Positions 17,717 to 64,000 of a DNA stretch of 64,000 bases are shown here, piece after piece. How positions within the stretch are numbered: position 1 is the stretch's first letter; each line of letters starts with the position of its first letter. The stretch is taken from the NCBI RefSeq assembly GCF_964213995.1, contig NC_135810.1, forward strand, positions 63,426,001 to 63,490,000, read 5' to 3'. Position numbers and translations under genes: made by a program. This DNA comes from Mustelus asterias. Its lineage: Eukaryota. The notes beneath the pieces are model-generated. The model was not told the origin of the DNA and ran no database searches. It saw only the letters and a program-made list of their open reading frames with translations.

Positions 17717-18910
17717 GGGCCCGATTTTACCATTTTGATTCTAAGTGCTGAATCCGGATGCAATTCAGGTCTGATTTGGAAACCTGCTCTCAGGCCCCCC
17801 CATATGCACTTAGCCTGAAAAAAAAAATCGCAGGTCTGAATTGCGCCGTGGGCGGGGCTTATCGCATCCAAAACGCTGGAGTTCCGATCAGAGCTTTGAA
17901 CTGCACATGCGCAAAACAAATTTGAAAAACACACCCCTGTCACATCGCTCCTGGGCCGTAAGAAGCGGATCTAGCCCGGGATCGAAAAGCGGGAGCGATG
18001 GCCCCCACAGACATCACCCCACCCCCACAACATAACTGTCCCCCTTATCCACCCACCCCCACTGCTACCGAGACCGATTGCGACCCCTGCCCCCCTTTCC
18101 CCCCACCGATCGCCCACAGAGAGGCAGCGGACCCCTTGTCCCTGCACCCCCCCCCCCACTAGAGATCCATCTGGCCTCCCTGTCCCCCCATCAGAGAATG
18201 ATCTGGCCTCCCTCCTCCTACCCACCACCCCCAACACCAGAGATGCATCTGAACCACCTCCCTCCCCCTCCCCACCAGAGAATGATCTGGTCTCCCTCCG
18301 CCCCCCCCCCCCCCCCACCAGAGAATGATCTGGCCTCCCACCCTCCCCCACCAGAGAACGATCTGCCCTCCCCTTGCCACCCGCCCCCCTCCCCCCACCA
18401 AAGAATGATCTGGCCTCCCTCCTCCCTGGCCCCCGCCAGAGAATAATCTGGCCTGCCTCCCTCCTCCCTCCCCCCACCAGTGAACGATCTGGCATCCCTC
18501 CTCCCTCCTCCTGCCAGAGAATGATTTGGCCTTCCTTCTCCTCCCCACCTCACCAGAGAATGATCTGGCCCGCCTCCCTCTATCCCCCCCTCAACCACTG
18601 ATCTGAGTCAGAGAGCCGCTGGAAGCTCTGAACTTACCTCTTCAGAAGCTGGAGTGCCCAAAACAGACCTTTGCCGAGCATGTCTGTTTCGTGCCGAATC
18701 TGGACGCGCAACCGCAATGGTAAAGGGGGAAATGCTGGTAAAGTTGGATGGGCAGCCCATTAATTCAAATTAAATGCATGCCATTTTCGGGCCTTGGTAA
18801 AGTGGGCATCTATGCGGACGTGGGTGTGGATCGCGCTAATCGCTTCACGCCCGACTTTACCAAGTTTTCACGCCCGAAGACAGGCGCGACGCAATGGTAA
18901 AATCAGGCCC
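17717..18910. mobile_element. PIF/Harbinger-like MITE with internal minisatellite
   Basis: TIRs GGGCCCGATTTTACCAT / ATGGTAAAATCAGGCCC. 3-bp TSD TTG on both sides. Confidence 0.85.
18159..18600 (+). repeat. Minisatellite, ~11 units of CCAGAGAATGATCTGGCCTCCC plus C-rich linkers
   Basis: Direct reading; period ~32-47 bp. Confidence 0.9.
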
Positions 18911-20350: not shown

Positions 20351-20571
20351 TGTAATGACCTCAACAAGGCCCATGAGGTTGGCCTCTTGGAGTATGAGCT
20401 CCCTGATTGAGGTAATGAATGCCTTCCCAATCAGGGAGTTTCACCTGTATATATATAGAGGAGTGTCAGGACTACTGATGCTTCAGATTCTGTACCTGAA
20501 GCACTCTTAGGAATGAAATTGAGTTTGTAAATAAAAGGAATCTGGTGAAGGGACACTGAGGAGTTATTTCA
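20351..20571 (+). mobile_element. Solo LTR (same family as 40496-45852)
   Basis: TGTAATGAC...GTTATTTCA termini, TATA and AATAAA. TSD CAGTG/CAATG (1 mismatch). Confidence 0.75.
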
Positions 20572-31413: not shown

Positions 31414-32381
31414 GGGTCCTATTTTACCATCTGGATTCTAATTGCTGGGCGGACTTGAAACTGAGTGTTTCAGATCCGATTTTTAGACCCGTTCTCAGGC
31501 GCCCCCATACCCACTCTGCCTGCAAAAATATCAGCGATTCCGAATTGTGCTGCAGAAGCCTGTGGGCGGGGCTTAACGCACCCGAAACCTTGCAGCTCCG
31601 ATCGGCGCCTCCAACTGCACATGTGCAACAAAAAATAGAATGCTGCTCCCCTGCCATATCGCTCCCAGGCCAGATAATGTTTCCCCCTGGCCTCCACAGA
31701 CATTGCCCCATCCCCCATCATTACTGACCTCCCTATCCCCCATCCCCCTGCCACCCAGACCAATCGCATGCTCCCCCCTTCCCCCCCCCCCCCCCCCCAT
31801 TGATTCAGGCAGAGTGGTAGCAGAGCCCCCTTTCCCCCCGCACTGATCTCAGGCAGAGTGGCAGCAGAACCTTCCCTCCTTCCCCCACTGATCTCAAGGA
31901 GAATGGCAGCGAACCCCCCCTCCCCCCCGCACTGATCTCAGGCAGAGTGGTAGCGGACCCCCCTTGCCCCCCCAATGATCTCAGGAAGAGTAGAAGCGGA
32001 ACCCCCCTCCCCACCGATCTCAAGCAGAGATCCGTTGGATGCTTGGTGCTTACCCCCTCACCAACTGGAGCACCCGAATCGGACTTTTATGGAGCATGTC
32101 TGTTTCGTGCCGATTCTGGATGGGTGAACGTGGTGGTAAAAGGGGGAAGTGCCGGTAAAGTTGGGCGTGCAGTCAATAAAGTCAATTGAAATGCATGCAA
32201 ATGCATTTAAATGGCCGTTGCGCCCCGTTTCAGGCGCGGTCCCGATCGCAGCCATTTTTGGGCCTTGGTAAAGGGGGAACTGGCGCGGAGGTGGGCGTGG
32301 ATTGCGCTACTCGTCTCACGCCCGACTTTACTAAGTTTTCACGCCCGAAAACGGGCGCAACACGATGGTAAAATCAGGCTC
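31414..32381. mobile_element. PIF/Harbinger-like MITE (same family as 17717-18910)
   Basis: TIRs GGGTCCTATTTTACCAT / ATGGTAAAATCAGGCTC. 3-bp TSD GAT. Internal repeat of tgatctcaggcagagtgg units. Confidence 0.85.
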
Positions 32382-40754: not shown

Positions 40755-43700
40755 TGATGCGCGTTATCACACACGAGGCTTGAGATGCTCAGGAAACAAA
40801 GGCTTTTATTTGCTGTACAACGAAGCTACTAATTATATACACGATCCCAGACTGAGGGGTCCCAGACAGAGCAGAGACCTTTATACCTCTCCCAGGAGGC
40901 GGAGCCCGACTGGGATGTACCACAATAACTATAATACAAGGTGTAACAGCCCAACCCTAACCCCAACAGCAACAAGTAGAACAACCCATCCCTAACCCCA
41001 ACAGCAACATATATACATACTTGTAGTACTGGCCAGACCCTGGCTCAGTACTATCTAGTGGGAACCAACGATGGTTCACCACATTCACCCCTCCTTTGAA
41101 GACAAAGGCCGGCGGGGTACAAAAAAACAGAATAATTTGTCATCAGTCTATAAGTTCAGACGGTCAGGGGGACCGCACCGTCGTTGTGACCTCCTCAATA
41201 CCGGCGATGACACCGGAGTAGGCACTCGCGGTGGCGTTCTCCCCAAGGCGATGTCCAACTGTTCCTCCACAGTTTCACAGGCCGGTTGACCCTGAGGTGA
41301 CGGTAATCCATGGAGTTCCGACACGCCCTGAAGTGGCGACCATCCTCTGGACTCAGGCAAGCTGTACACGGGAGTAAATGGGTTAAGTAATGGTCCCGAT
41401 GCTGCCCGCGCCGTGTCCGGAGGGGAAACAAGAGTTATGGGGTTTGTAACAGGGGGTATGGGAGCGACAGGGGTTTCTACGTCCCCTGCTGGCGCCAGGT
41501 CTCGGATCGAGACTGTGTCCTCTCGCCTGTCAGGGTATGCCACATAGGCATACTGAGGGTTGGCGTGGAGGAGATGGACCTGTTCGACCAACGGGTCGGA
41601 CTTGCGGGCCCTTACATGTCGCCGCAGGAGGACAGGTCCTGAGTATGTCAACCAAGACGGTAATGAGGTCCCAGAGGAAGACGTCCGAGGGAATGAAAAC
41701 ATCCTCTCATGGGGAGTAGCATTGGTTGGCGTACACAGGAGTGAGCGTATGGAATGGAGCACATCAGGGAGCACCTCTTGCCAACGGGAGACTGGAAGGC
41801 TTTTTGACTTCAACGCCAGTAAGACTGCCTTCCAGACTGTAGCATTCTCACGTTCCACCTGTCCGTTACCCCTAGGGTTGTAGCTCGTGGTTCTACTAGA
41901 GGCAATCCCGTATGAGAGCAGGTATTGCCTCAAGTCATCGCTCATGAACGACGAGCCCCTGTCGCTGTGAATGTAGCTGGGGTACCCGAACAGGGTAAAA
42001 AGATCACGGAATGCCTTGATAACTGTGGGAGCGGATGTATCAGAGCAGGGAATAACAAAAGGGAATCTCGAGTACTCGTCAATGGTGTTGAGGAAGTACA
42101 CATTCCGATCTGTTGAGGGAAGGGGGCCCTTAAAATCGACACTCAGTCTTTCGAAGGGACGAGTGGCCTTGACTAATTGTGCCCGGTCAGGTCGGTAAAA
42201 GTGCGGTTTGCATTCCGCGCATACCCGACAGCTTCTTGTTATGGACCTGACATCCTCCACCGAGTAGGGCAGATTGCGGGCTTTTATAAAGTGGTAGAGC
42301 CGAGTGACCCCAGGATGGCATAGGTCATTATGGAGAGCCTGCAAACGGTCCTCCTGTATACTGGCGCATGTTCCACGCGAGAGAGCATCCGAGGGCTCAT
42401 TGAGTTTCCCTGGACGATAAATGATGTCATAGTCATAGGTGGAGAGTTCAATTCTCCACCGCAAGATCTTATCGTTCTTGATCTTGCCCCTCAGCGTGTT
42501 ATTAAAAATGAACGCCACGGACCGCTGGTCCGTGATCAGGGTGAACCGTTTTCCCGCCAAGTAATGGCGCCAGTGCCTGACGGCCTCCACAATGGCCTGG
42601 GCCTCCTTTTCCACCGCTGAATGCCGAATTTCGGGGCCTTGGAGGGTGCGGGAAAAAAAAGCGACGGGCCTGCCCGCCTGGTTAAGTGTGGCAGCCAGGG
42701 CGAAATCAGATGCATCGCTCTCCACCTGAAAGGGGATGGACTCATCAGCAGCATGCATCGTAGCTTTCGCGATGTCGGCTTTTAGTTTATCAAAGGCCAA
42801 TCGGGCCTCTGGTGTTAGGGGAAGAGTCGTGGACTTGATGAGCGGACGGGCTTTGTCCGCGTAAATGGGAACCCACTGTGCATAGTAAGAGAAGAAGCCT
42901 AAGCATCTTCTCAGTGCTTTTGCACTAGTGGGCAGGGGAAGTCCAAAGAGGGGACGCATACGGTCTGGATCAGGGCCAATTACCCCGTTTTCCACCACGT
43001 ATCCGAGGATGGCTAAACGGCGCATACGAAACACACACTTCTCCCTGTTGTAGGTCAGGTTCAGGCGAGATGCAGTGCGTAGGAAATTCAGGAGATTTGT
43101 GTCGTGGTCCTGCTGGTCATGGCCGCAGATGGTGACGTTATCCAGGTACGGGAAGGTAGCCCGCAGCCTGTTCTGGTCCACCATTCGGTCCATAGCACGC
43201 TGGAAGACCGAGACCCCATTGGTGACACCAAAGGGAACGCTGAGAAAGTGATACAAGCGACCATCCACCTCAAAAGCCGTGTCTTGTCAGTCCTCTGGGC
43301 GAATGGGGAGTTGGTGGTAGGCAGACTTGAGGTCTATGGTGGAGAACACCCGGTACTGCGCAATCTGATTGACCATGTCAGATATGCGCGGGAGGGGATA
43401 CGCATCCAGCTGCGTGTATCGATTCATGGTCTGACTATAGTCAATGACCATCCGGGGTTTGTTCCCACTCTTGACCACCACGACCTGCGCTCTCCACGGA
43501 CTAGCGCTAGGTTGTATGATCCTTTCCTTGAGGAGCCGCTGAACTTCAGATCGAATGAAGATCCGATCCTCAGCGCTGTAACGCCTACTCTTAGTTGCAA
43601 TGGGCTTGCAGCCTGGCACAAGATTCTGGAACAGGGAGGGTGTGGTGATCTTCAGCGTCGAGAGGCTACAGGCGGGGCGCGTTGGGCAATTTGGAGGCTG

Positions 43701-45523
43701 CTGTTCTCCCACTGAAAGCAAAGGGAGTGGCCCACCGTACTGTAGGGTTACACTCCTCAAGTGGACCATGAAGTTTAGTCCGAGAAGTAATGGCGCGCAA
43801 AGGTGCGGCAACACCAGGAGCTTGAAACGCTCGTAAACTGTGCTTGCACCGTTTAAGTTACCACGCAACTCCCTAGCACAGTGACAGACCGGGACCTTGA
43901 TGCCATAGAAATTGTCTGTTTGACAGGTTGAATCCGCAGTCCACACCGCTTCACAGCGTCTGGGTGGATAAAACTCTCAGTGCTCCCGCTGTCAAACAGA
44001 CAATAAATCAAGTGGTCGTTTACCTGAATGTCCATCATAGACTTGTCAAGTCTATGAGGCTTAGCCTGGTCCAGGATGATCGAACCCACCGTTGGTTCAT
44101 GAGCGCCACTGCAGGCAGCTGAGATTGACGAGGACGACCCCTGCTGGTCGTTCGCGGTCGGTGCCGACCAACATGGCCGCTCCCATAGGTTGCACGTGGG
44201 TGATGGCGCCAAACTCAGCGACCCCTGGTGGTCACACGTCTCCGACTCCGTCGACCGTAATGGCGTCGTCCTGGCCTCGCACATGGACGAAACCCTCGAC
44301 GATGTCGACGATGAAGAACCGGGCTCCGGGGAATCGCAGGCCGCACTGCTGTTCCGAGAAGCAGATTTAGATCGGCACACTTTCGAATAGTGCCCCTTCT
44401 TACCGCAGGCGGAGCACAACACAGCTTTAGCGGGACACCGTTGCTGAGCATGCTTCGCTTCCCCACAGAAGTAACACCGCGGGCCGCCCGGAGCTGCTGC
44501 CATCGTCTGGCCTGAGTGTGAGCACGCCATCACGCAGCATTTCGAACCCGAGGGACGAGGAGGGATTGGCGACTGCTCCTGCCACGTTGTCTCCACGTGG
44601 TCGTCAGGATACAATACTAGGCTTTTGGAGGCCGTCTCCAACATATCCGCTAGTTCTATTGCCTGGGTGAGGTCAAGATTACCTTTCTCCAGTAGTTTGA
44701 GTCGGATGTAAGATGATCCGACTCCCGCCACAAACGCATCTCGAGCGAGGTCATTCATATTCTACTCTGCCGACACTGCTTTGCAGTTACAGCCCCTGGC
44801 GAGCTGTAGGAGCTCGTTGACGTATTCCTCCGTCGTTTCGCCGGACTGCCGTCGTCGAGTGGCTAAGAGGTAACGAGCGTGTATTTCGTTGGGCGGTTTA
44901 ATATAACGCTTCTTAAGAAGCTTGAGGGCCTTTGTGTAGTCGGTGGCCGCACGGATCGCGAGGTAGACAGTGTCGCTTACCCTCGCATGGAGGACCCGGA
45001 GTCTGTCATCATCTGTGGTGACCGCTGCGGAGGCTGCCAGGTAGTCCTCAAAACATTTCAACCAGTGGTCGAAGGTGTTAGAGGCGCCCGCCGCACGTGG
45101 ATCTAGTGTAAGGCGTTCAGGCTTCTGTATCTGCTCCATACTCTCTCTATATCGTTTTTTTTTTCGACGAGAGTTTATTTACAGCAAATAAAATTGATGC
45201 GCATTATCACACACGAGGCTTGAGATGCTCAGGAAATAAAGGCTTTTATTTGCTGTACAACGAAGCTACTAATTATATACACGATCCCAGACTGAGGGGT
45301 CCCAGACAGAGCAGAGACATTTATACCTCTCCCAGGAGGCGGAGCCCGACTGGGGTGTACCACAATAACTATAATACAAGGTGTAACAGCCCAACCCTAA
45401 CCCCAACAGCAACAAGTAGAACAACCCATCCCTCACCCCAACAGCAACATATATACATACTTGTAGTACTGGCCAGACCCTGGCTCAGTACTATCTAGTG
45501 GGAACCAACGATGGTTCACCACA
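40755..45523 (-). mobile_element. Full-length Ty3/Gypsy LTR retrotransposon, copy 1
   Basis: 329-bp LTRs at 40755-41083 and 45195-45523 (TG...CA, 5 differences), TSD CCCCC, PPT next to 41084, gag-PR-RT-RH-IN order. Confidence 0.98.
41148..45139 (-). pseudogene. gag-pol of copy 1, disrupted
   Basis: Two CCHC knuckles, LFDSGST protease, RT YLDN, RNase H ESDAS, integrase HHCC and D,D35E. Stops at 44762 (CAG>TAG) and 43287 (CGA>TGA), and a stop plus frameshift at ~43845-43855. Confidence 0.95.
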
Positions 45524-46367
45524 CCCCCTTAATCACATTTTAATTTGGTGTTTTAAGTTTTCTTCCTACTTTGTCTTTCGGGCGGTTCCCTTCCTTTTAG
45601 GGAGCTGCCCTTTTTGAGTTGTTCCTAAGTTAGTTTGATTTTGTTTATTTGGTTGGACACAAAAAGAGTTCCTGATGGATGTCATAATTGTCTGCCCAAT
45701 CAGGGAGCATCACCTGTATATAAAAGTGGGAGTGTCAGGTTCACTGGTATTCTGGATTCTGACTGTGTACCTGAAGCACTCTAGGAGTGGAATTGAGTTT
45801 GTAAATAAAGGGAATCTGGTGAAGGGACACCAGCCTCTGAGGAGTTATTTCAATCTGTACCACACTCAGCTTAGAGTTATTAATTGCAGTCAGATCAGAC
45901 TGGGAGTATGGTCCTTATAACCTGTAGTCTTTTCCAACTTTAAGATCTCCCCAGTGCAAGTTTCAAATGTACTTGTTTATAACAATTCCAAATATTAGAA
46001 ATGAAAAACATTTGCTTTAATGCTCAATGTTGGCCTTTATTTAATTAGGTGAAAACTCCATCATCTTTCCTTTTCATTCATAGACAGCCCTCCTATTAAC
46101 TCAAAAGCACTGACTGGGTCAGGCAACATCAGTGGCGAGAGTAACAGAGTAAATAAATGGGGATAAACGTAACCCTGAAAAATAGATGAGTTTGAGTTTG
46201 GGTGGGGGAGGAGTGAGGTGCTGTAATGTCCAGCCCATCTACAAGTTAAGTGAGTGGGCAGCAAGATGGCAGGTGGAGTATAATATGGGGAAGTTTGAGG
46301 TCATCAGAATAGAAAAGCAGAATATTTTTTATAAAAACCATGAAACTTGATGGCCAGTGGGATTTGA

Positions 46368-57209: not shown

Positions 57210-57923
57210 CTATCTCTGATCTCACCAGTTCCTTCACATTAACCTGTCACTCTGTATAGATAAGCCAGGCACCATGGAAAAGAATTGAGACCCTCCTTTA
57301 ACTTTGACAACCGGCCTCCAACTATTGTTGCCTGCCAGCAATCTTAACCTCAGACCTTAGGTATGGTTCCTCTTGCTCACTATGATCCCAGACACATACC
57401 CGTCCCATTTCCTTTAATGTCAGGGATCATTTGAGTACGATCCTGGAATTGGCTTCCTACCATATGCTGGGTCGGAGCTGGAAACTGAGTCTGAACATGT
57501 TCAGATCTCCTGGTCTCGTAATTCTGTAGGCCTCTGATGCGCGTTATCATACACGAGGCTAGATGCTCAGAAAATAAAGGCTTTTATTTGCTGTAACAAG
57601 GCAGCTACCAATTATATACACGATCCCAGACTGAGGGGTCCCAGCCAGAGCAGGGACCTTTATACCTCTCCCAGGAGGCGGAGCCCGACTGGGATGTACC
57701 ACAATACTACAATACAAAGGTGTAACAACCCCACCCTAACCTCAACAGCAACAAGTAGAACAACCCATCCCTAACCCAACAGCAACATATATACATACTT
57801 GTAGTACTGGCCAGACCCTGGCTCAGTACTATCTAGTGGGAACCAACGATGGTTCACCACATTCACCCCTCCTTTGAAAACAAAGGCCGGCGGGGTACAA
57901 AAACAGAATAATTTGTCATCAGT

Positions 57924-60626
57924 CTATAAGTTCAGACCGTCAGGGGGACCGCACCGTCGTTGTGACCTCCTCAATACCAGCGATGACACCGGAGTAGGCA
58001 CTCGCGGTGGCGTTCTCCCCAAGGCGATGTCCAGCTGTTCCTCCACAGACTCACGGGCCGGTTGACCCTGAGGTGACGGTAATCCATGGAGTTCCGACAC
58101 GCCCTGAAGTGGCGACCATCCTCTGGACTCAGGCAAGCTGTACACGGGAGTAAAAGGGTTAAGTAATGGTCCCGATGCTGTCCGCGCCGTGTCCGGGAGG
58201 GAAACAAGAGTTAAAGGGTTTGTAACAGGGGGTATGGGAGCGACAGGGGTTGCTACGTCCCCTGCTGGCGCCAGGTCTCGGATCGAGACCGTGTCCTCTC
58301 GCCCGTCAGGGTATGCCACATAGGCATACTGAGGGTTGGCGTGGAGGAAATGGACCTGTTCAACCAACGGGTCGGACTTGCGGGCCCTTACATGTCGCCG
58401 CAGGAGGACAGGTCCTGAGTACGTCAACCAAGACGGTAATGAGGTCCCCGAGGAAGACTTCCGAGGGAATGAAAACATCCTCTCATGGGGAGTAGCATTG
58501 GTTGCCGTACACAGAAGTGAGCGAATAGAATGGAGCGCATCAGGGAGCACCTCTTGCCAACGGGAGACTGGAAGGCTTTTTGACTTCAACGCCAGTAAGA
58601 CTGCCTTCCAGACTGTAGCATTCTCACGTTCCACCTGTCCGTTACCCCTAGGGTTGTAGCTCGTGGTTCTACTAGAGGCAATCCCGTATGAGAGCAGGTA
58701 TTGCCTCAAGTCATCGCTCATGAACGACGAGCCCCTGTCACTGTGAATGTAGCCGGGGTACCCGAACAGGGTAAAAAGATCACGGAATGCCTTGATAACC
58801 GTGGCAGCGGATGTATCAGAGCAGGGAACAACAAAAGGGAATCTAGAGTACTCGTCAATGATGTTGAGGAAGTACACATTCCGATCTGTTGAGGGAAGGG
58901 GGCCCTTAAAATCGACACTCAGTCTCTCGAAGGGACGAGTGGCCTTGACTACATGTGCCCGGTCAGGTCGGTAAAAGTGCGGTTTGCATTCCGCGCATAC
59001 CCGACAGCTTCTTGTTATGGACCTGACGTCCTCCACCGAGTAGGGCAGATTGCAGGCTTTTATAAAGTGGTAGAGCCGAGTGACCCCAGGATGGCATAGT
59101 TCATTATGGAGAGCCTGCAAACGGTCCTCCTGTATACTGGCGCATGTTCCACGCGAGAGGGCATCCGAGGGCTCATTGAGTTTCCCTGGACGATACATGA
59201 TGTCATAGTTATAGGTGGAGAGTTCAATTCTCCACCGCAAGATCTTGTCATTCTTGATCTTGCCCCTCTGCGTGTTATTAAACATGAACGCCACGGACCG
59301 CTGGTCTGTGATCAGGGTGAACCATTTTCCCGCCAAGTAATGGCGCCAGTGCCTGACGGCCTCCACAATGGCCTGGGCCTCCTTTTCCACCGCTGAATGC
59401 CGAATTTCAGGGCCTTGGAGGGTGCGGGAAAAAAATGCGACGGGCCTGCCCGCCTGGTTAAGTGTGGCGGCCAGGGCGAAATCAGATGCATCGCTCTCCA
59501 CCTGAAAGGGGATGGACTCATCAACAGCGTGCATCATACCTTTCACGATGTCGGCTTTTAATTTATCGAAGGCCAATCGGGCCTCTGGCGTTAGGGGAAA
59601 AGTAGTGGACTTAATGAGCGGACGAGCTTTGTCCGCGTAATTGGGAATCCACTGCGCATAATAAGAGAAGAAGCCTAAGCATCTTCTCAGTGCTTTTGCA
59701 CTAGTGGGCAGGGGAAGTTCAGAAAGGGGGCGCATACGGTCTGGATCAGGGCCAATGAACCCGTTTTCCACCACGTATCCTAGGATGGCTAAACGGCGCG
59801 TACGAAACACACACTTCTCCCTGTTGTAGGTCAGATTCAGGCGAGATGCAGTGCGTAGGAAGCTCAGGAGATACGTGTCGTGGTCCTGCTGGTCATGGCC
59901 GCAGATGGTGACATTATCCAGGTACGGGAAGGTAGCCCGCAGCCCGTTCTGGTCCACCATTCGGTCCATAGCACGCTGGAAGACTGACACCCCATTGGTG
60001 ACACCAAAGGGAACCCTGAGAAAGTGATACAAACGACCATCCGCCTCAAAAGCTGTGTATTGTCGGTCCTCTGGGCGAATGGGGAGTTGGTGGTAGGCAG
60101 ACTTGAGGTCTATGGTGGAGAACACCCGGTACTGCGCAATCTGATTGACCATGTCAGATATGCGTGGGAGGGGATACGCATCCAGCTGCGTATATCGATT
60201 AATGGTCTGACTATAGTCAATGACCATCTGGGGTTTGTTCCCGCTCTTGACCACCACGACCTGCGCTCTCCACGGACTAGCGCTGGGTTGTATGATCCTT
60301 TCCTTGAGGAGCCGCTGAACCTCAGATCGAATGAAGATCCGATCCTCAGCGCTGTAACGCCTATTCTTAGTCACAATGGGCTTGCAGCCTGGCACAAGAT
60401 TCTGGAACAGGGAGGGTGTGGTGATCTTCAGCGTCGAGAGGCTACAGGCGGGGCGCGTTGGGCAATTTGGAGGCTGGTGTTCTCCCACTGAAAGCGAAGG
60501 GAGTGGCCCACCGTACTGTAGGGTTACACTCCTCAAGTGGACCATGAAGTTTAGTCCGAGAAGTATTGGCGCGCAAAGGTGCGGCAACACTAGGAGCTTG
60601 AAACACTCGTAAACTGTGCCTTGCAC
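57924..60626 (-). CDS. pol: Gypsy Pol: PR C-terminus, RT, RNase H, integrase
   Basis: 900-aa open frame with FSTIDLKSAYHQL, PFG, YLDN, ESDAS, TDQRS, H-H-C-C, VDFKGP, HSDRG and NGQVER. No chromodomain or env. Confidence 0.95.
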   Translation of the reverse strand: MQGTVYECFKLLVLPHLCAPILLGLNFMVHLRSVTLQYGGPLPSLSVGEHQPPNCPTRPACSLSTLKITTPSLFQNLVPGCKPIVTKNRRYSAEDRIFIRSEVQRLLKERIIQPSASPWRAQVVVVKSGNKPQMVIDYSQTINRYTQLDAYPLPRISDMVNQIAQYRVFSTIDLKSAYHQLPIRPEDRQYTAFEADGRLYHFLRVPFGVTNGVSVFQRAMDRMVDQNGLRATFPYLDNVTICGHDQQDHDTYLLSFLRTASRLNLTYNREKCVFRTRRLAILGYVVENGFIGPDPDRMRPLSELPLPTSAKALRRCLGFFSYYAQWIPNYADKARPLIKSTTFPLTPEARLAFDKLKADIVKGMMHAVDESIPFQVESDASDFALAATLNQAGRPVAFFSRTLQGPEIRHSAVEKEAQAIVEAVRHWRHYLAGKWFTLITDQRSVAFMFNNTQRGKIKNDKILRWRIELSTYNYDIMYRPGKLNEPSDALSRGTCASIQEDRLQALHNELCHPGVTRLYHFIKACNLPYSVEDVRSITRSCRVCAECKPHFYRPDRAHVVKATRPFERLSVDFKGPLPSTDRNVYFLNIIDEYSRFPFVVPCSDTSAATVIKAFRDLFTLFGYPGYIHSDRGSSFMSDDLRQYLLSYGIASSRTTSYNPRGNGQVERENATVWKAVLLALKSKSLPVSRWQEVLPDALHSIRSLLCTATNATPHERMFSFPRKSSSGTSLPSWLTYSGPVLLRRHVRARKSDPLVEQVHFLHANPQYAYVAYPDGREDTVSIRDLAPAGDVATPVAPIPPVTNPLTLVSLPDTARTASGPLLNPFTPVYSLPESRGWSPLQGVSELHGLPSPQGQPARESVEEQLDIALGRTPPRVPTPVSSLVLRRSQRRCGPPDGLNL

Positions 60627-61908
60627 CGTTAGTTACCACGCAACTCCCTAGCACGGTGACAGACCGGGACCTTGATGCCATAGAAATTGTCTGTTTGACA
60701 GGTTGAATCCGGAGTCCACACCGCTTCACAGCGTCTGGGTGGATAAAGCTCTCAGTGCTCCCGCTGTCAAACAGACAATAACTCAAGTGGTCATTTACCT
60801 GAATGTCCATCATAGATTTGTCAAGTCTATGAGGCTTGGCCTGGTCCAGGATGATCGATGCCACCGTTGGTTCATGAGCGCCACTGCAGGCAGCTGAAAT
60901 CGACGAGGATGACCCCTGCTGGTCATTCGCGGTCGGTGCCGACCAACATGGCCGCTCCCATAGGTCGCACGTGGGTGATGGCGCCAAACTCAGCGACCCC
61001 TGGTGGTCACACATCTCCGACTCCGTCGACCGTAATGGCATCGTCCTGGCCTCGCACGTGGACAAAACCCTCGACGATGTCGACGACGAAGAACCGGGCT
61101 CTGAGGAATCGCAGGCCGCACTGCTGTTCCTAGATTTAGATTGGCACACTTTCGAATAGTGCCCCTTCTTACCGCAGGCGGAGCACAACAAAGCTTTAGC
61201 GGGACACCGTTGCCAAGTATGCTTCGCTCCCCCACAGAAGTAACACCGCGGGCCGCCCGGAGCTGCTGCCGTCGTCTGGCCCGAGTGTGAGCACGCCATT
61301 ACGCAGCATTTCAAACCCGAGGGACGAGGAGGGATTGGCGACTGCTCCTGCCACGTTGTCTCCACGTGGTCTTCAGGATACAATACTAGGCTTTTGGAGG
61401 CCGTCTCCAGCATCTCCGCTAGTTCTATTGCCTGGGTAAGGTCAAGGTTAACTTTCTCCCGTAGTTTGAGTCGAATGTACGACGATCCGACTCCCGCCAC
61501 AAACGCATCTTGGGCGAGGTCGTTCATACTCTGCTCAGCCGACACAGCTTTGCAGTTACAGCTCTTGGCTAGCTGTAGGAGCTCGTTCGCGTATTCCTCC
61601 ATCGTTTCGCCAGACTGCCGTCGTCGAGTGGCTAAGAGGTAACGAGCGTGTATTTCGTTGGGCGGTTTAATATAACGCTTCTTCAGAAGCTCGAGGGCCT
61701 TTGTGTAATCAGTGGCCGCACGGATCGCGAGGTAGACAGTGTCGCTTACCCTCGCATGGAGGACCCGGAGTCTGTCATCATCTGTGGTGACCGCTGCGGA
61801 GGCTGCCAGGTAGTCTTCGAAACGCTTCAGCCAGTGGTCGAAGGTGTTAGAGGCGCCCACCACACGTGGATCTAGTGTAAGGCGTTCCGGCTTCAGTATC
61901 TGCTCCAT
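60442..61908 (-). CDS. gag: Gypsy Gag (two CCHC knuckles) plus N-terminal part of the aspartic protease
   Basis: 488-aa ORF with CYFCGGAKHTWQRC, CSACGKKGHYSKVC and CLFDSGSTESFI. The last ~63 aa are out of frame. Confidence 0.9.
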   Translation of the reverse strand: MEQILKPERLTLDPRVVGASNTFDHWLKRFEDYLAASAAVTTDDDRLRVLHARVSDTVYLAIRAATDYTKALELLKKRYIKPPNEIHARYLLATRRRQSGETMEEYANELLQLAKSCNCKAVSAEQSMNDLAQDAFVAGVGSSYIRLKLREKVNLDLTQAIELAEMLETASKSLVLYPEDHVETTWQEQSPIPPRPSGLKCCVMACSHSGQTTAAAPGGPRCYFCGGAKHTWQRCPAKALLCSACGKKGHYSKVCQSKSRNSSAACDSSEPGSSSSTSSRVLSTCEARTMPLRSTESEMCDHQGSLSLAPSPTCDLWERPCWSAPTANDQQGSSSSISAACSGAHEPTVASIILDQAKPHRLDKSMMDIQVNDHLSYCLFDSGSTESFIHPDAVKRCGLRIQPVKQTISMASRSRSVTVLGSCVVTNGARHSLRVFQAPSVAAPLRANTSRTKLHGPLEECNPTVRWATPFAFSGRTPASKLPNAPRL

Positions 61909-64000
61909 ACTCTCTTTTTTTTTCTTCTTCGACGAGAGTTTATTTACAGCAAATAAAATTGATGCGCGTTATCATACACGAGGCTAGATGCTCAGGAAAT
62001 AAAGGCTTTTATTTGCTGTAACAAAGCAGCTACCAATTATATACACGATCCCAGACTGAGGGGTCCCAGCTAGAGCAGGGACCTTTATACCTCTCCCAGG
62101 AGGCGGAGCCCGACTGGGATGTACCACAATACTACAATACAAAGGTGTAACAACCCCACCCTAACCCCAACAGCAACAAGTAGAACAACCCATCCCTAAC
62201 CCCAACAGCAACATATATACATACTTGTAGTACTGGCCAGACCCTGGCTCAGTACTATCTAGTGGGAACCAACGATGGTTCACCACAGCCTCTCAGCTTG
62301 CCACTTAGCTCAGCCCCTGGCCGCACCCACCTTGCTCATTCTTATAATTTACCCCGCAATCTACAACTGGCACTTCTTTCCCTGCTGATGGTGAAAGTCA
62401 CAAAATCACCCTATTGATTAAATCTTTAAGCATAAAGCTTTGGAACGCAGCTATGTTCTTTTCTGGTTCAAGTAATGATTGACTCACTCTGCAGTTCCAG
62501 CATCTCTGACTGGAAATTTCCCAGTCTCATAAAGGTGACTTAGGAGGTGCGGAGTCTGGGAATTTTAGAAACTGAGGGCCAAATGTTTGCTCCTGTTTTG
62601 ACAGGAAAATTCCCAGCTCTGCCATTCCAGCATTTAGAATTGCTGCCCACAGGTCAGATTTTCACTTTTGTGTGGAAGGCCTGTCTCTGTATTCTGGCAG
62701 TGTGTTAAGAAAAATTTCACCCCTCACCTCTTCAGACTCCGCACATTCATGTCAACCTATGCCATCTCATGTCCCTCACCCCCCATGGCCTCTCATACCC
62801 CTTACATCAACCCTTCTGCCTACTGGCTATTGACACCCTTTATGCTACCCATATTCTCATGGCCTTTTATAGTCCTGAAGCCAACAGTGCCAAACCATGC
62901 CCTTTCCTGCCACCCTTTTCCCTTACTGCCTCCAAACCAACTTATCTAGTATTTTTTGACAGTCCCTTGACAGCTTGACAGATCTTTGTCAGCTTCAGTA
63001 AGTTTCAATGTGTTTACACATATTTTGTGCACAATCATATTAATTTTAACAATCTCAAAGGGTGCCTTTCCTCCCAAAAGGGTCCCAGGGCCAAATCCAA
63101 AGGGGTACTTTATTTCAGCAAAGGGGTAACTTGGCCATCCAAACAGATCAACCAAGTTAAGACCACCTCTTACCTGGTCTAATCTGCACACTCCAGGCTT
63201 TACATTCCTGGTCTACCATAATCCCATCTGGTAATTTAAATGGCCAGCAAACCATGCATACACTAATCCTGGCCCAACCCCATTCCTGCCCTTTGCGAGA
63301 ATGGAACAGACTGTGCTCAGGGACAGGATTTAGAATTTCCAGCAATTTCTGGGATTCTCATCACAAGAGTCTCAGAGAGGCTCTCCATCGTGGTGAAAGT
63401 CTGGGCCTAAATCATTGGCACACTTTCTTATGAATTTCCCGGATGTATGAGGGCAGCAGCAATGGCAATGTGCCTAGCGTCAACGGCAGTTAGTTAAGCC
63501 AATTAATGAGGTGTTTAGCAGGTTTTTGTAAACGGATTGCAATTTTTCCTGCATCGCATGGGCCTTCCACCATGTCCACAACCATGGTTAAATGAAAGGA
63601 GCTGGCTGCACCGTGGGATGTGGCGGCTGGTTTACACATGAGTGAGTTTTAAATAATGCCAACAAAAAATGACAAGGCTGAAATTGTCTCATCTCACACA
63701 CTTGCTGCTGAGTGTGGAATTCCTGGAGATGGATGTCCCTGATTGCAATGAGCCTCACCCCTGATGCCGATGGTGGTTGTACAGCTCCCCTGAAACTCCT
63801 GCTCCTTGGGCCTCAGCAGCCTTCCCCTTGGGAAGCTACATTATTGTGCTCACTTCATCATCTTCTGACAATATATATTTTAAATGCTTGCACTTGCAAT
63901 GAGTTTAATAAATGGTATTGCAATTCAAATTCTCTTCAATATCCTCAGGCACACTCACAAAGAGGTAAATATTTTCAGGAATTTAGGTATCGGGTCACTA

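Follow-up and report, generated by a model that had tools for sequence, protein, structure and literature searches.

In the sections of the literature available to us, self-priming is shown only for Tf1 and is held to be a mark of the Tf1/sushi chromoviruses. In Tf1, the primer site is paired with the first 11 bases, and the RNase H cut falls between bases 11 and 12 (PMC7175516), and about half of the cDNA carries copied primer-site sequence (PMC11042837). As described there, the Tf1/sushi group combines self-priming with a chromodomain and a three-duplex ‘pretzel’ leader (PMC10085805, PMC4600332), while the plant Tcn1 (Gypsy) and TAR (Copia) lineages are predicted self-primers (Neumann et al. 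2019, PMC6317226).

We analysed a stretch of 64,000 nucleotides from the genome of the shark Mustelus asterias (hereafter the window), which carries two copies of a compact Gypsy family, and then compared these copies with relatives in the same genome and in other organisms. The comparisons make it very probable that the family starts minus-strand synthesis without a tRNA, by self-priming in one form or another.

Elements in the window and their primer-site duplex

Element 2 is a Ty3/Gypsy element of 4,753 bp on the minus strand, with LTRs that are 98.5% identical and a flanking target duplication GAGGC. It shows the gene order protease, RT, RNase H and integrase, TG..CA LTRs, a short target duplication and a polypurine tract, as expected for Ty3/Gypsy, and the top solved-structure match of its protein is Ty3 Gag-Pol (E 1.7e-66). 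Its reading frame changes within the protease region; many relatives encode a single polyprotein of 1100–1450 aa. Element 1 (40755–45523) belongs to the same family as element 2 (57535–62287), lies 16.8 kb away in the same orientation and has the same LTR identity of 98.5%. The two are separate insertions because their target duplications differ. The main structural features are as follows.

61960..62287, minus strand: 5' LTR of element 2 (TG..CA, 328 nt), with target duplication GAGGC
57535..57861, minus strand: 3' LTR of element 2, forming a pair with the 5' LTR
57862..57875, minus strand: polypurine tract before the 3' LTR of element 2
60442..61908, minus strand: gag of element 2 (two CCHC knuckles) and start of the protease; the frame changes in the protease region
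57924..60632, minus strand: pol frame of element 2 (remaining protease, RT, RNase H and integrase); no match to a chromodomain
45195..45523, minus strand: 5' LTR of element 1 (copy 1), with the arm at 45257–45244 and target duplication GGGGG
40755..41083, minus strand: 3' LTR of element 1, forming a pair with the 5' LTR

Other repeats also occur in the window. Two C-rich tandem arrays (18136–18582 and 31785–32003) lie within a related repeat pair (17848–18908 and 31562–32379). A stretch of 91 nt with a TATA-like core is present at 20402–20492 and 45671–45761 (75% alike); one copy adjoins the 5' LTR of element 1, and the stretch is perhaps the LTR of another element.

The sequence-only reading of this DNA had described a site behind the 5' LTR that is not of the TGG tRNA type and that is complementary to a part of the LTR overlapping an AATAAA signal. 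This description holds: there is no TGG behind the 5' LTR in either window copy, and the pairing stretch of the LTR (the arm) includes AATAAA. The 15-bp match of element 2 is exact, with a lower coordinate of 61944 in place of 61945, which was one base short, and the 14 bp of copy 1 (45180–45193 versus 45244–45257) were reproduced. A slash marks the predicted cut here and below.

61959..61959, minus strand: spacer of one base (A, as in 62/63 shark elements)
61944..61958, minus strand: primer-binding site TTTTATTTGCTGTAA, the exact reverse complement of 62021–62007 (15 bp)
62007..62021, minus strand: primer arm in R, 15 nt, with AATAAA at 62013–62008; predicted cut between 62007 and 62006 (A/GCC)
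61960..62006, minus strand: rest of R plus U5, template of the predicted strong-stop DNA; the GCC at its start is predicted to open a second helix
45180..45193, minus strand: primer-binding site of element 1, 14 bp with arm 45257–45244

The 3' end of the arm of element 2 lies 47 nt upstream of the LTR end. Neither match length was reached by any of 1000 dinucleotide-shuffled LTRs, and the host DNA behind the 3' LTRs of the two window copies, used as a control, has self-matches of only 5 and 6 bp. The published criterion for a self-primer asks for at least 10 bp complementary to the 5' LTR, beginning 0–5 nt behind it, and no tRNA site; element 2 has 15 bp at an offset of 1. The window's family has a local hairpin that competes with the duplex for the arm: the minimum free energy (MFE) fold from the predicted transcript start lacks the duplex, the centroid keeps 12 bp of it, and in another sequence context the mean pair probability of the duplex is 0.74. 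The arm may fold locally with the U-rich bases behind it (62018–61993), and this hairpin would hide the poly(A) hexamer in either LTR.

Covariation of arm and site among relatives

An LTR query of the host genome (3.68 Gb) gave 2635 first-look candidates, 40 of which were scored. The shark sample consists of 82 stretches of ∼7 kb each, namely the two window copies and 80 places picked from hit lists. In 63 of the 82, the LTR end is fixed, independently of the primer site, by an LTR pair flanked by a 5-bp duplication with no more than one mismatch; 11 have no LTR pair and eight no duplication. None of the 63 has TGG in the first eight bases after the LTR, and 62 have A as the spacer. Pair counts use 59 of these elements at positions where both LTR arms agree; four are left out because of a deletion, a shift by one base or decay of the 3' LTR. 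Duplex positions 1–12 comprise 677 Watson–Crick pairs, one G-U pair and 10 mismatched pairs. Pairing continues at positions 13, 14 and 15 in 49/56, 47/56 and 36/58 elements, and at position 16 in 2/55.

The arm and the site change together. Positions 8–13 show two to four Watson–Crick pair types each among 23 shark haplotypes, and paired arm/site changes distinguish shark copies whose gag DNA is 93–96% alike. Compensated pairs are found between several near relatives (i.e. L175/L176, L173/L177, L344/L181, L326/L325/L337, L106/L109 and L092/L094). When arms and sites are combined across elements, a full match at positions 5–12 (8 of 8) occurs in only 9/1332 non-cognate cases; cognate pairs match in 295/296, but the elements were chosen for the duplex and this second count is not independent support. 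A stricter exact-match test finds 12–16 bp in 13 of 19 shark elements and 5–9 bp in the other six, where single changes break the match. The arm end was set to maximize pairing within 40–56 nt, and a rule based on the AAA/RCC motif only (83 of the 90 5' loci parsed) gives the same register wherever both can be used.

Two TGG-site Gypsy families of the same genome served as controls, and their self-match is 5–7 bp in 9/9 elements with fixed ends. From their RT and primer-site motifs, we take these families to be Mag-like (Mag-A/B-like) and Gmr1-like. One control (L276–L286 and L289) is a second high-copy Gypsy family with long open frames and 4-bp target duplications, in which the TGG site lies three bases behind the LTR's CA plus spacer Ts.

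Correction between arm and site is not strict, because there are 11 mismatch or wobble positions where both LTRs agree, five of them at position 7. This position, the first A of the hexamer, forms a mismatch cluster (5/56 of the elements whose two LTRs agree there), and the arms of two families show an identical A-to-C change; the elements concerned are L178, L077, L338, L339, L310, L330, L185, L340 and L347. Some copies also differ between their own parts. L296 (= L087) has a private hexamer change in its 5' arm that is matched by its primer site, while its 3' LTR is unchanged; L317, its closest sampled copy, has a changed site and two unchanged arms. This pattern fits copying of a primer into the site, and chance could also produce it. 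In L186, L301, L302, L333 and L334, the 5' and 3' LTRs, or the arms and the site, carry alleles of different subfamilies while the target duplication is intact or nearly so, which may reflect strand transfer between two co-packaged RNAs.

More distant relatives came from a metagenome scan (80 kept of 505 confirmed loci) and from prokaryote-labelled assemblies (eight loci). Their RT is 47–73% identical to that of the window's element, and 47 of these 88 non-shark loci were usable, with a locatable gag start and enough DNA before it. An exact inverted repeat of 11–19 bp, with its right arm just behind a CA, is present in 37 of the 47, and one of 8–10 bp in six. The remaining four have none: one is truncated by the end of its contig, another carries a deletion within the 5' LTR, the third has no LTR and in the fourth the gag start is misplaced. 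Where target duplications fix the ends, the repeat is 13–19 bp long in 11/14 loci, and two of the remaining three do not represent LTR pairs of the clade. The distance from arm end to site is 26–69 nt, mostly 39–56 nt. Covariation of LTR and site in sister families, which had been proposed as a check, is thus present and is lost in neither the shark nor the non-shark relatives.

Several candidates were set aside as LTR pairs of the clade: the ‘repeats’ of L095, L117, L121, L132 and L151 are contig overlaps or internal duplications, and that of L107 belongs to an outer TGG-site element. L140, a distant member, has a match of 13 bp whose start is shifted two bases further on and which lies ∼78 nt from an LTR end that has no target-duplication support. 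The eight contigs from bacteria-titled genomes that carry the clade (L356–L363) are most likely host contamination. A 5.3-kb record listed as a Wolbachia plasmid also contains a Gypsy-like RT.

These relatives appear to form one group. In a quick tree of 55 RT rows (unrooted and with no named reference), a long branch (SH-aLRT 99) separates the window's element and the non-shark relatives from the TGG families. RT identity is 84–90% among the sampled shark family representatives and 26–35% to other Gypsy families sampled in the same genome. The best Gag matches carry the label Mustelus asterias, followed by Scyliorhinus, Nematostella, Trichinella and Oratosquilla at 32–43%. A protein search with RT–RNase H gave 2117 matches among 7985 scored candidates, and the labelled sources among the 120 matches listed include rays, sharks, cnidarians and Trichuris. 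No relatives were found in viral contigs, and a protein-atlas search (ESM Atlas) returned generic RT clusters only. A chromodomain was detected in none of 38 aligned polyproteins (E ≤ 0.01), nor in the window's pol protein, nor in the domain lists of the 120 matches listed. The DUF4939 profile had no match in the host genome and none in the controls either, an uninformative result, and five SH3_Tf2-1 neighbourhoods contained no chromovirus RT.

Predicted transcript start, cut and primer

Three motifs bear on where the RNA might begin.

62084..62089, minus strand: TATAAA box, the likely promoter, conserved in shark families
62055..62059, minus strand: initiator-like TCAGT, 32 nt behind TATAAA; motif-based predicted start at 62057
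62036..62043, minus strand: TATATAAT, 22 nt before the arm; not conserved and probably not the main promoter

The distance from a TATA box to the transcript start is ∼30 nt. A TATAAA box followed by an initiator-like YYA(G/C)T at an offset of 31–34 nt is present in 7/7 shark families (one copy each), an arrangement found in 2.5–4% of shuffles in each case, and the same spacing occurs in 76 of 83 parsed 5' loci, 30 of which are near-identical copies of one family. These motifs, in shark families of shared ancestry, suggest that transcription starts ∼36 nt upstream of the arm in element 2 (35–60 nt across families), or 50–75 nt before the arm's end. No clear TATA box was seen by eye in the invertebrate-type LTRs. 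Contigs from three runs, when aligned to the LTR, were uninformative as to where the RNA begins or ends. The box TATATAAT, which had been noted ∼20 nt before the LTR target, is indeed there but is missing from most sister families and is not a conserved feature.

The arm, mostly 13–17 nt long, almost always has AAA as its last bases, and GCC or ACC comes next (GCC in 54/63 shark elements and also in most non-shark loci), which places the AAA/RCC junction ∼45–55 nt before the LTR end. With the duplex enforced, the bases behind the arm are predicted to be paired and to open a second helix in 29/33 elements, compared with 333/990 shuffled loops; the counts at the −1 and +1 positions of the junction are partly built in, since the 33 folded elements, which are related sequences, were pre-selected for the duplex and an A/G or A/A junction. 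In the predicted folds, many non-shark elements form the second helix as a local hairpin, and in most shark elements the U5 end is the partner. The AAA/RCC junction with its second helix is a likely cut site in this model. The arm holds AATAAA in nearly all shark families. Among non-shark arms, AATAAA or ATTAAA is present in 15/24 and neither in 9/24; one of the arms (L129) ends in GAAGA, and three of the nine without a hexamer (L092, L093 and L112) have a separate hexamer downstream of the arm. Register, distance and junction are conserved while the hexamer varies, which indicates that the poly(A) signal is not required.

Self-priming is favoured because a fixed start one base behind the LTR suits a minus-strand primer and because the arm's 3' end pairs next to the LTR. 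The proposal that a chromodomain-less element primes from its own RNA is well supported by the covariation and by the lack of a good match among the tRNA genes compared; the Tf1-like start that it implied, at the arm behind TATATAAT, is not favoured. Judging from motifs and alignments, the primer is probably the element's own RNA, cut at A/RCC within the 5' copy of R, in a transcript that starts upstream of the arm. The steps would be that (i) the RNA starts ∼36 nt upstream of the arm, directed by the TATA box and initiator; (ii) the arm anneals to the primer site and the RCC behind it opens the second helix, which puts the scissile bond at a helix–helix junction; (iii) the element's RNase H cuts at this junction, by analogy with Tf1 only, and releases a 5' fragment of ∼50–75 nt, the last 13–17 nt of which are the annealed primer; (iv) the RT copies U5 and distal R, ∼48 nt in all, and transfers to the 3' R via the stretch between the cut and poly(A) sites; and (v) the primer is copied back into the primer site during plus-strand synthesis, so that both sides would stay Watson–Crick matched. 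The near absence of G-U pairs suits such copying, as in Tf1 cDNA, and selection alone could also account for it. Families whose arm holds the hexamer would, as a by-product, also conceal the 5' poly(A) signal.

A start of the Tf1 type, with the transcript beginning at the arm's first base, a 5'-terminal piece of 13–17 nt as the primer and the upstream TATA box and initiator serving another transcript, is unlikely. The sharp end of the pairing at 15–16 bp, which is a caveat for an internal primer, is also what a 5'-terminal primer would leave. TATATA is found ∼20 nt upstream of the arm in two shark families, and Tf2 uses alternative start sites, with no primer at one of them, according to the part of that report available (PMC5341516). 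However, none of the seven shark families has a TATA box 25–38 nt before the arm, all seven have the TATA box and initiator further upstream, and with a start at the arm the poly(A) hexamer would fall ∼8 nt from the cap.

The primer could instead be supplied by the 3' R copy, or by an independent short RNA that terminates at the poly(A) signal of the 5' LTR. The arm, close to the 3' end of such an RNA, would pair with the primer site, the tail beyond the arm would be cut or trimmed, strong-stop DNA would run to the cap, and the 35–60 nt of R upstream of the arm would be used for strand transfer. This would explain both the usual hexamer in the arm and the upstream start. The sequence data do not separate the R copies (5'-only matches number 12 and 3'-only matches seven), and copy-level variants that might tell which copy supplied the primer (L296/L317, L338/L339, L333 and L334) are few and point both ways. 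We nevertheless regard a 3' R or short-RNA primer as improbable: the 5' arm copy lies 48 nt from the primer site, its predicted mean cis pair probability is at least 0.87 in 31/33 elements, and the canonical hexamer is absent from the nine non-shark arms mentioned above.

It is very unlikely that concealment of the 5' LTR poly(A) signal is all that the duplex does and that some other, unseen primer is used. Such masking has in its favour the AATAAA in the arm, in the window and in nearly all shark families, and the position of the partner outside the LTR, which gives a duplex at the 5' end only and hence the asymmetry that masking needs. Yet masking has no need for a fixed start one base after the LTR (the A spacer of 62/63 shark elements, with the same register in non-shark loci), and the duplex is kept in arms without a hexamer (e.g. 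the GAAGA arm of L129, and L092, L093 and L112 with their separate hexamer). The gag gene starts ∼20–55 nt after the LTR in most shark elements, so a second primer site has no room. G-U pairs are common in purely structural helices, but they make up just 1/688 pairs here. Masking cannot be the conserved purpose because 9/24 non-shark arms have no canonical hexamer. Thus, of the suggestion that the duplex masks the 5' LTR poly(A) signal, the presence of AATAAA in the window's arm stands, while the arm is not always a poly(A) signal and masking is at most secondary.

Priming by a host tRNA, a tRNA half or another small RNA, with the LTR match incidental, has next to no probability: although direct comparison took in just 33 distinct tRNA genes with 10 anticodons, it gave no good match to 3' ends or halves (7 nt internally and 1 nt at the 3' end at best), a full tRNA needs the TGG that is absent in 63/63 elements, and a tRNA half or other conserved host RNA would leave one site shared by all families, whereas the site varies by family and follows each family's own LTR, as the 9/1332 non-cognate matches show.

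Comparison with known self-primed and tRNA-primed elements

A search of open-licence papers and preprints, with subscription journals and Repbase outside its scope, turned up no description of self-priming for any animal Gypsy clade other than chromoviruses, and a motif search of papers likewise gave nothing. A broader proposal, to which we give somewhat less than an even chance, is that a large animal non-chromovirus Gypsy clade (in sharks, rays, cnidarians, nematodes and crustaceans by protein labels) evolved tRNA-free priming independently and with a geometry unlike that of Tf1, its primer being cut from inside the genomic RNA at a conserved AAA/RCC helix junction that usually coincides with the poly(A) signal. 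A single RNA fold would then position the primer, define the end of the DNA and conceal the 5' poly(A) signal, all of it so far unpublished. In retroelements, the position of the minus-strand primer sets the DNA end. A widespread non-chromovirus animal clade with the self-priming signature would mean that tRNA-free priming arose again or predates what is assumed. Self-primed elements would presumably escape host 3' tRNA fragments that act on tRNA sites, and an internal primer, if true, would broaden the action of a Gypsy RNase H on an RNA duplex. For biochemistry, the conserved junction affords an exact and inexpensive test; for programs that find LTRs by requiring a tRNA site, it supplies a rule.

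The Mag lineage has a TGG-type tRNA primer site, which is absent from the shark elements (0/63). With the tRNA-primed non-chromovirus animal Gypsy clades (i.e. Mag A/B/C, CsRN1, Cigr-1, Tor2 and MolGy), the shark element shares compactness, the lack of a chromodomain and two CCHC knuckles, as far as the available parts of the descriptions go (PMC6238403, PMC8556966, PMC3601003), but it has no TGG site. The LTR motif TGTGGYG tabulated for CsRN1 (PMC3601003, Table 3, the part of that source available) opens the window's LTR (shark LTRs start with TGTGGT, which is close to it) but not those of most non-shark relatives. The clade may already bear one of the known animal Gypsy names.

The plant Tcn1 and TAR elements were recognized, according to the accessible text, by the same sequence criterion (at least 10 bp, 0–5 nt behind the LTR; PMC6317226), but they belong to a different lineage and live in different hosts. 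A close likeness is to Tf1/Tf2 (Schizosaccharomyces pombe), Tj1, Tosmo1-3, Tcry1 and the Tf1/sushi group of chromoviruses, which, from the portions of the reports available, are also Ty3/Gypsy elements without a tRNA site, with a site behind the 5' LTR that is complementary to the LTR and with an extra adjoining helix (PMC10085805, PMC7175516, PMC4600332). By contrast with Tf1/sushi as described in those portions, the shark clade (i) has no chromodomain (0/38); (ii) has a duplex of mostly 13–17 bp as opposed to 11; (iii) has its arm predicted to lie 35–60 nt inside the RNA and not at the 5' end; and (iv) has an arm that usually contains a poly(A) hexamer and ends at a conserved AAA/RCC, with a second helix that is often a local hairpin. 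We do not file the element under Tf1/sushi, because it has no chromodomain match and probably lacks a 5'-terminal primer; what it shares with that group is a primer site that pairs with its own LTR.
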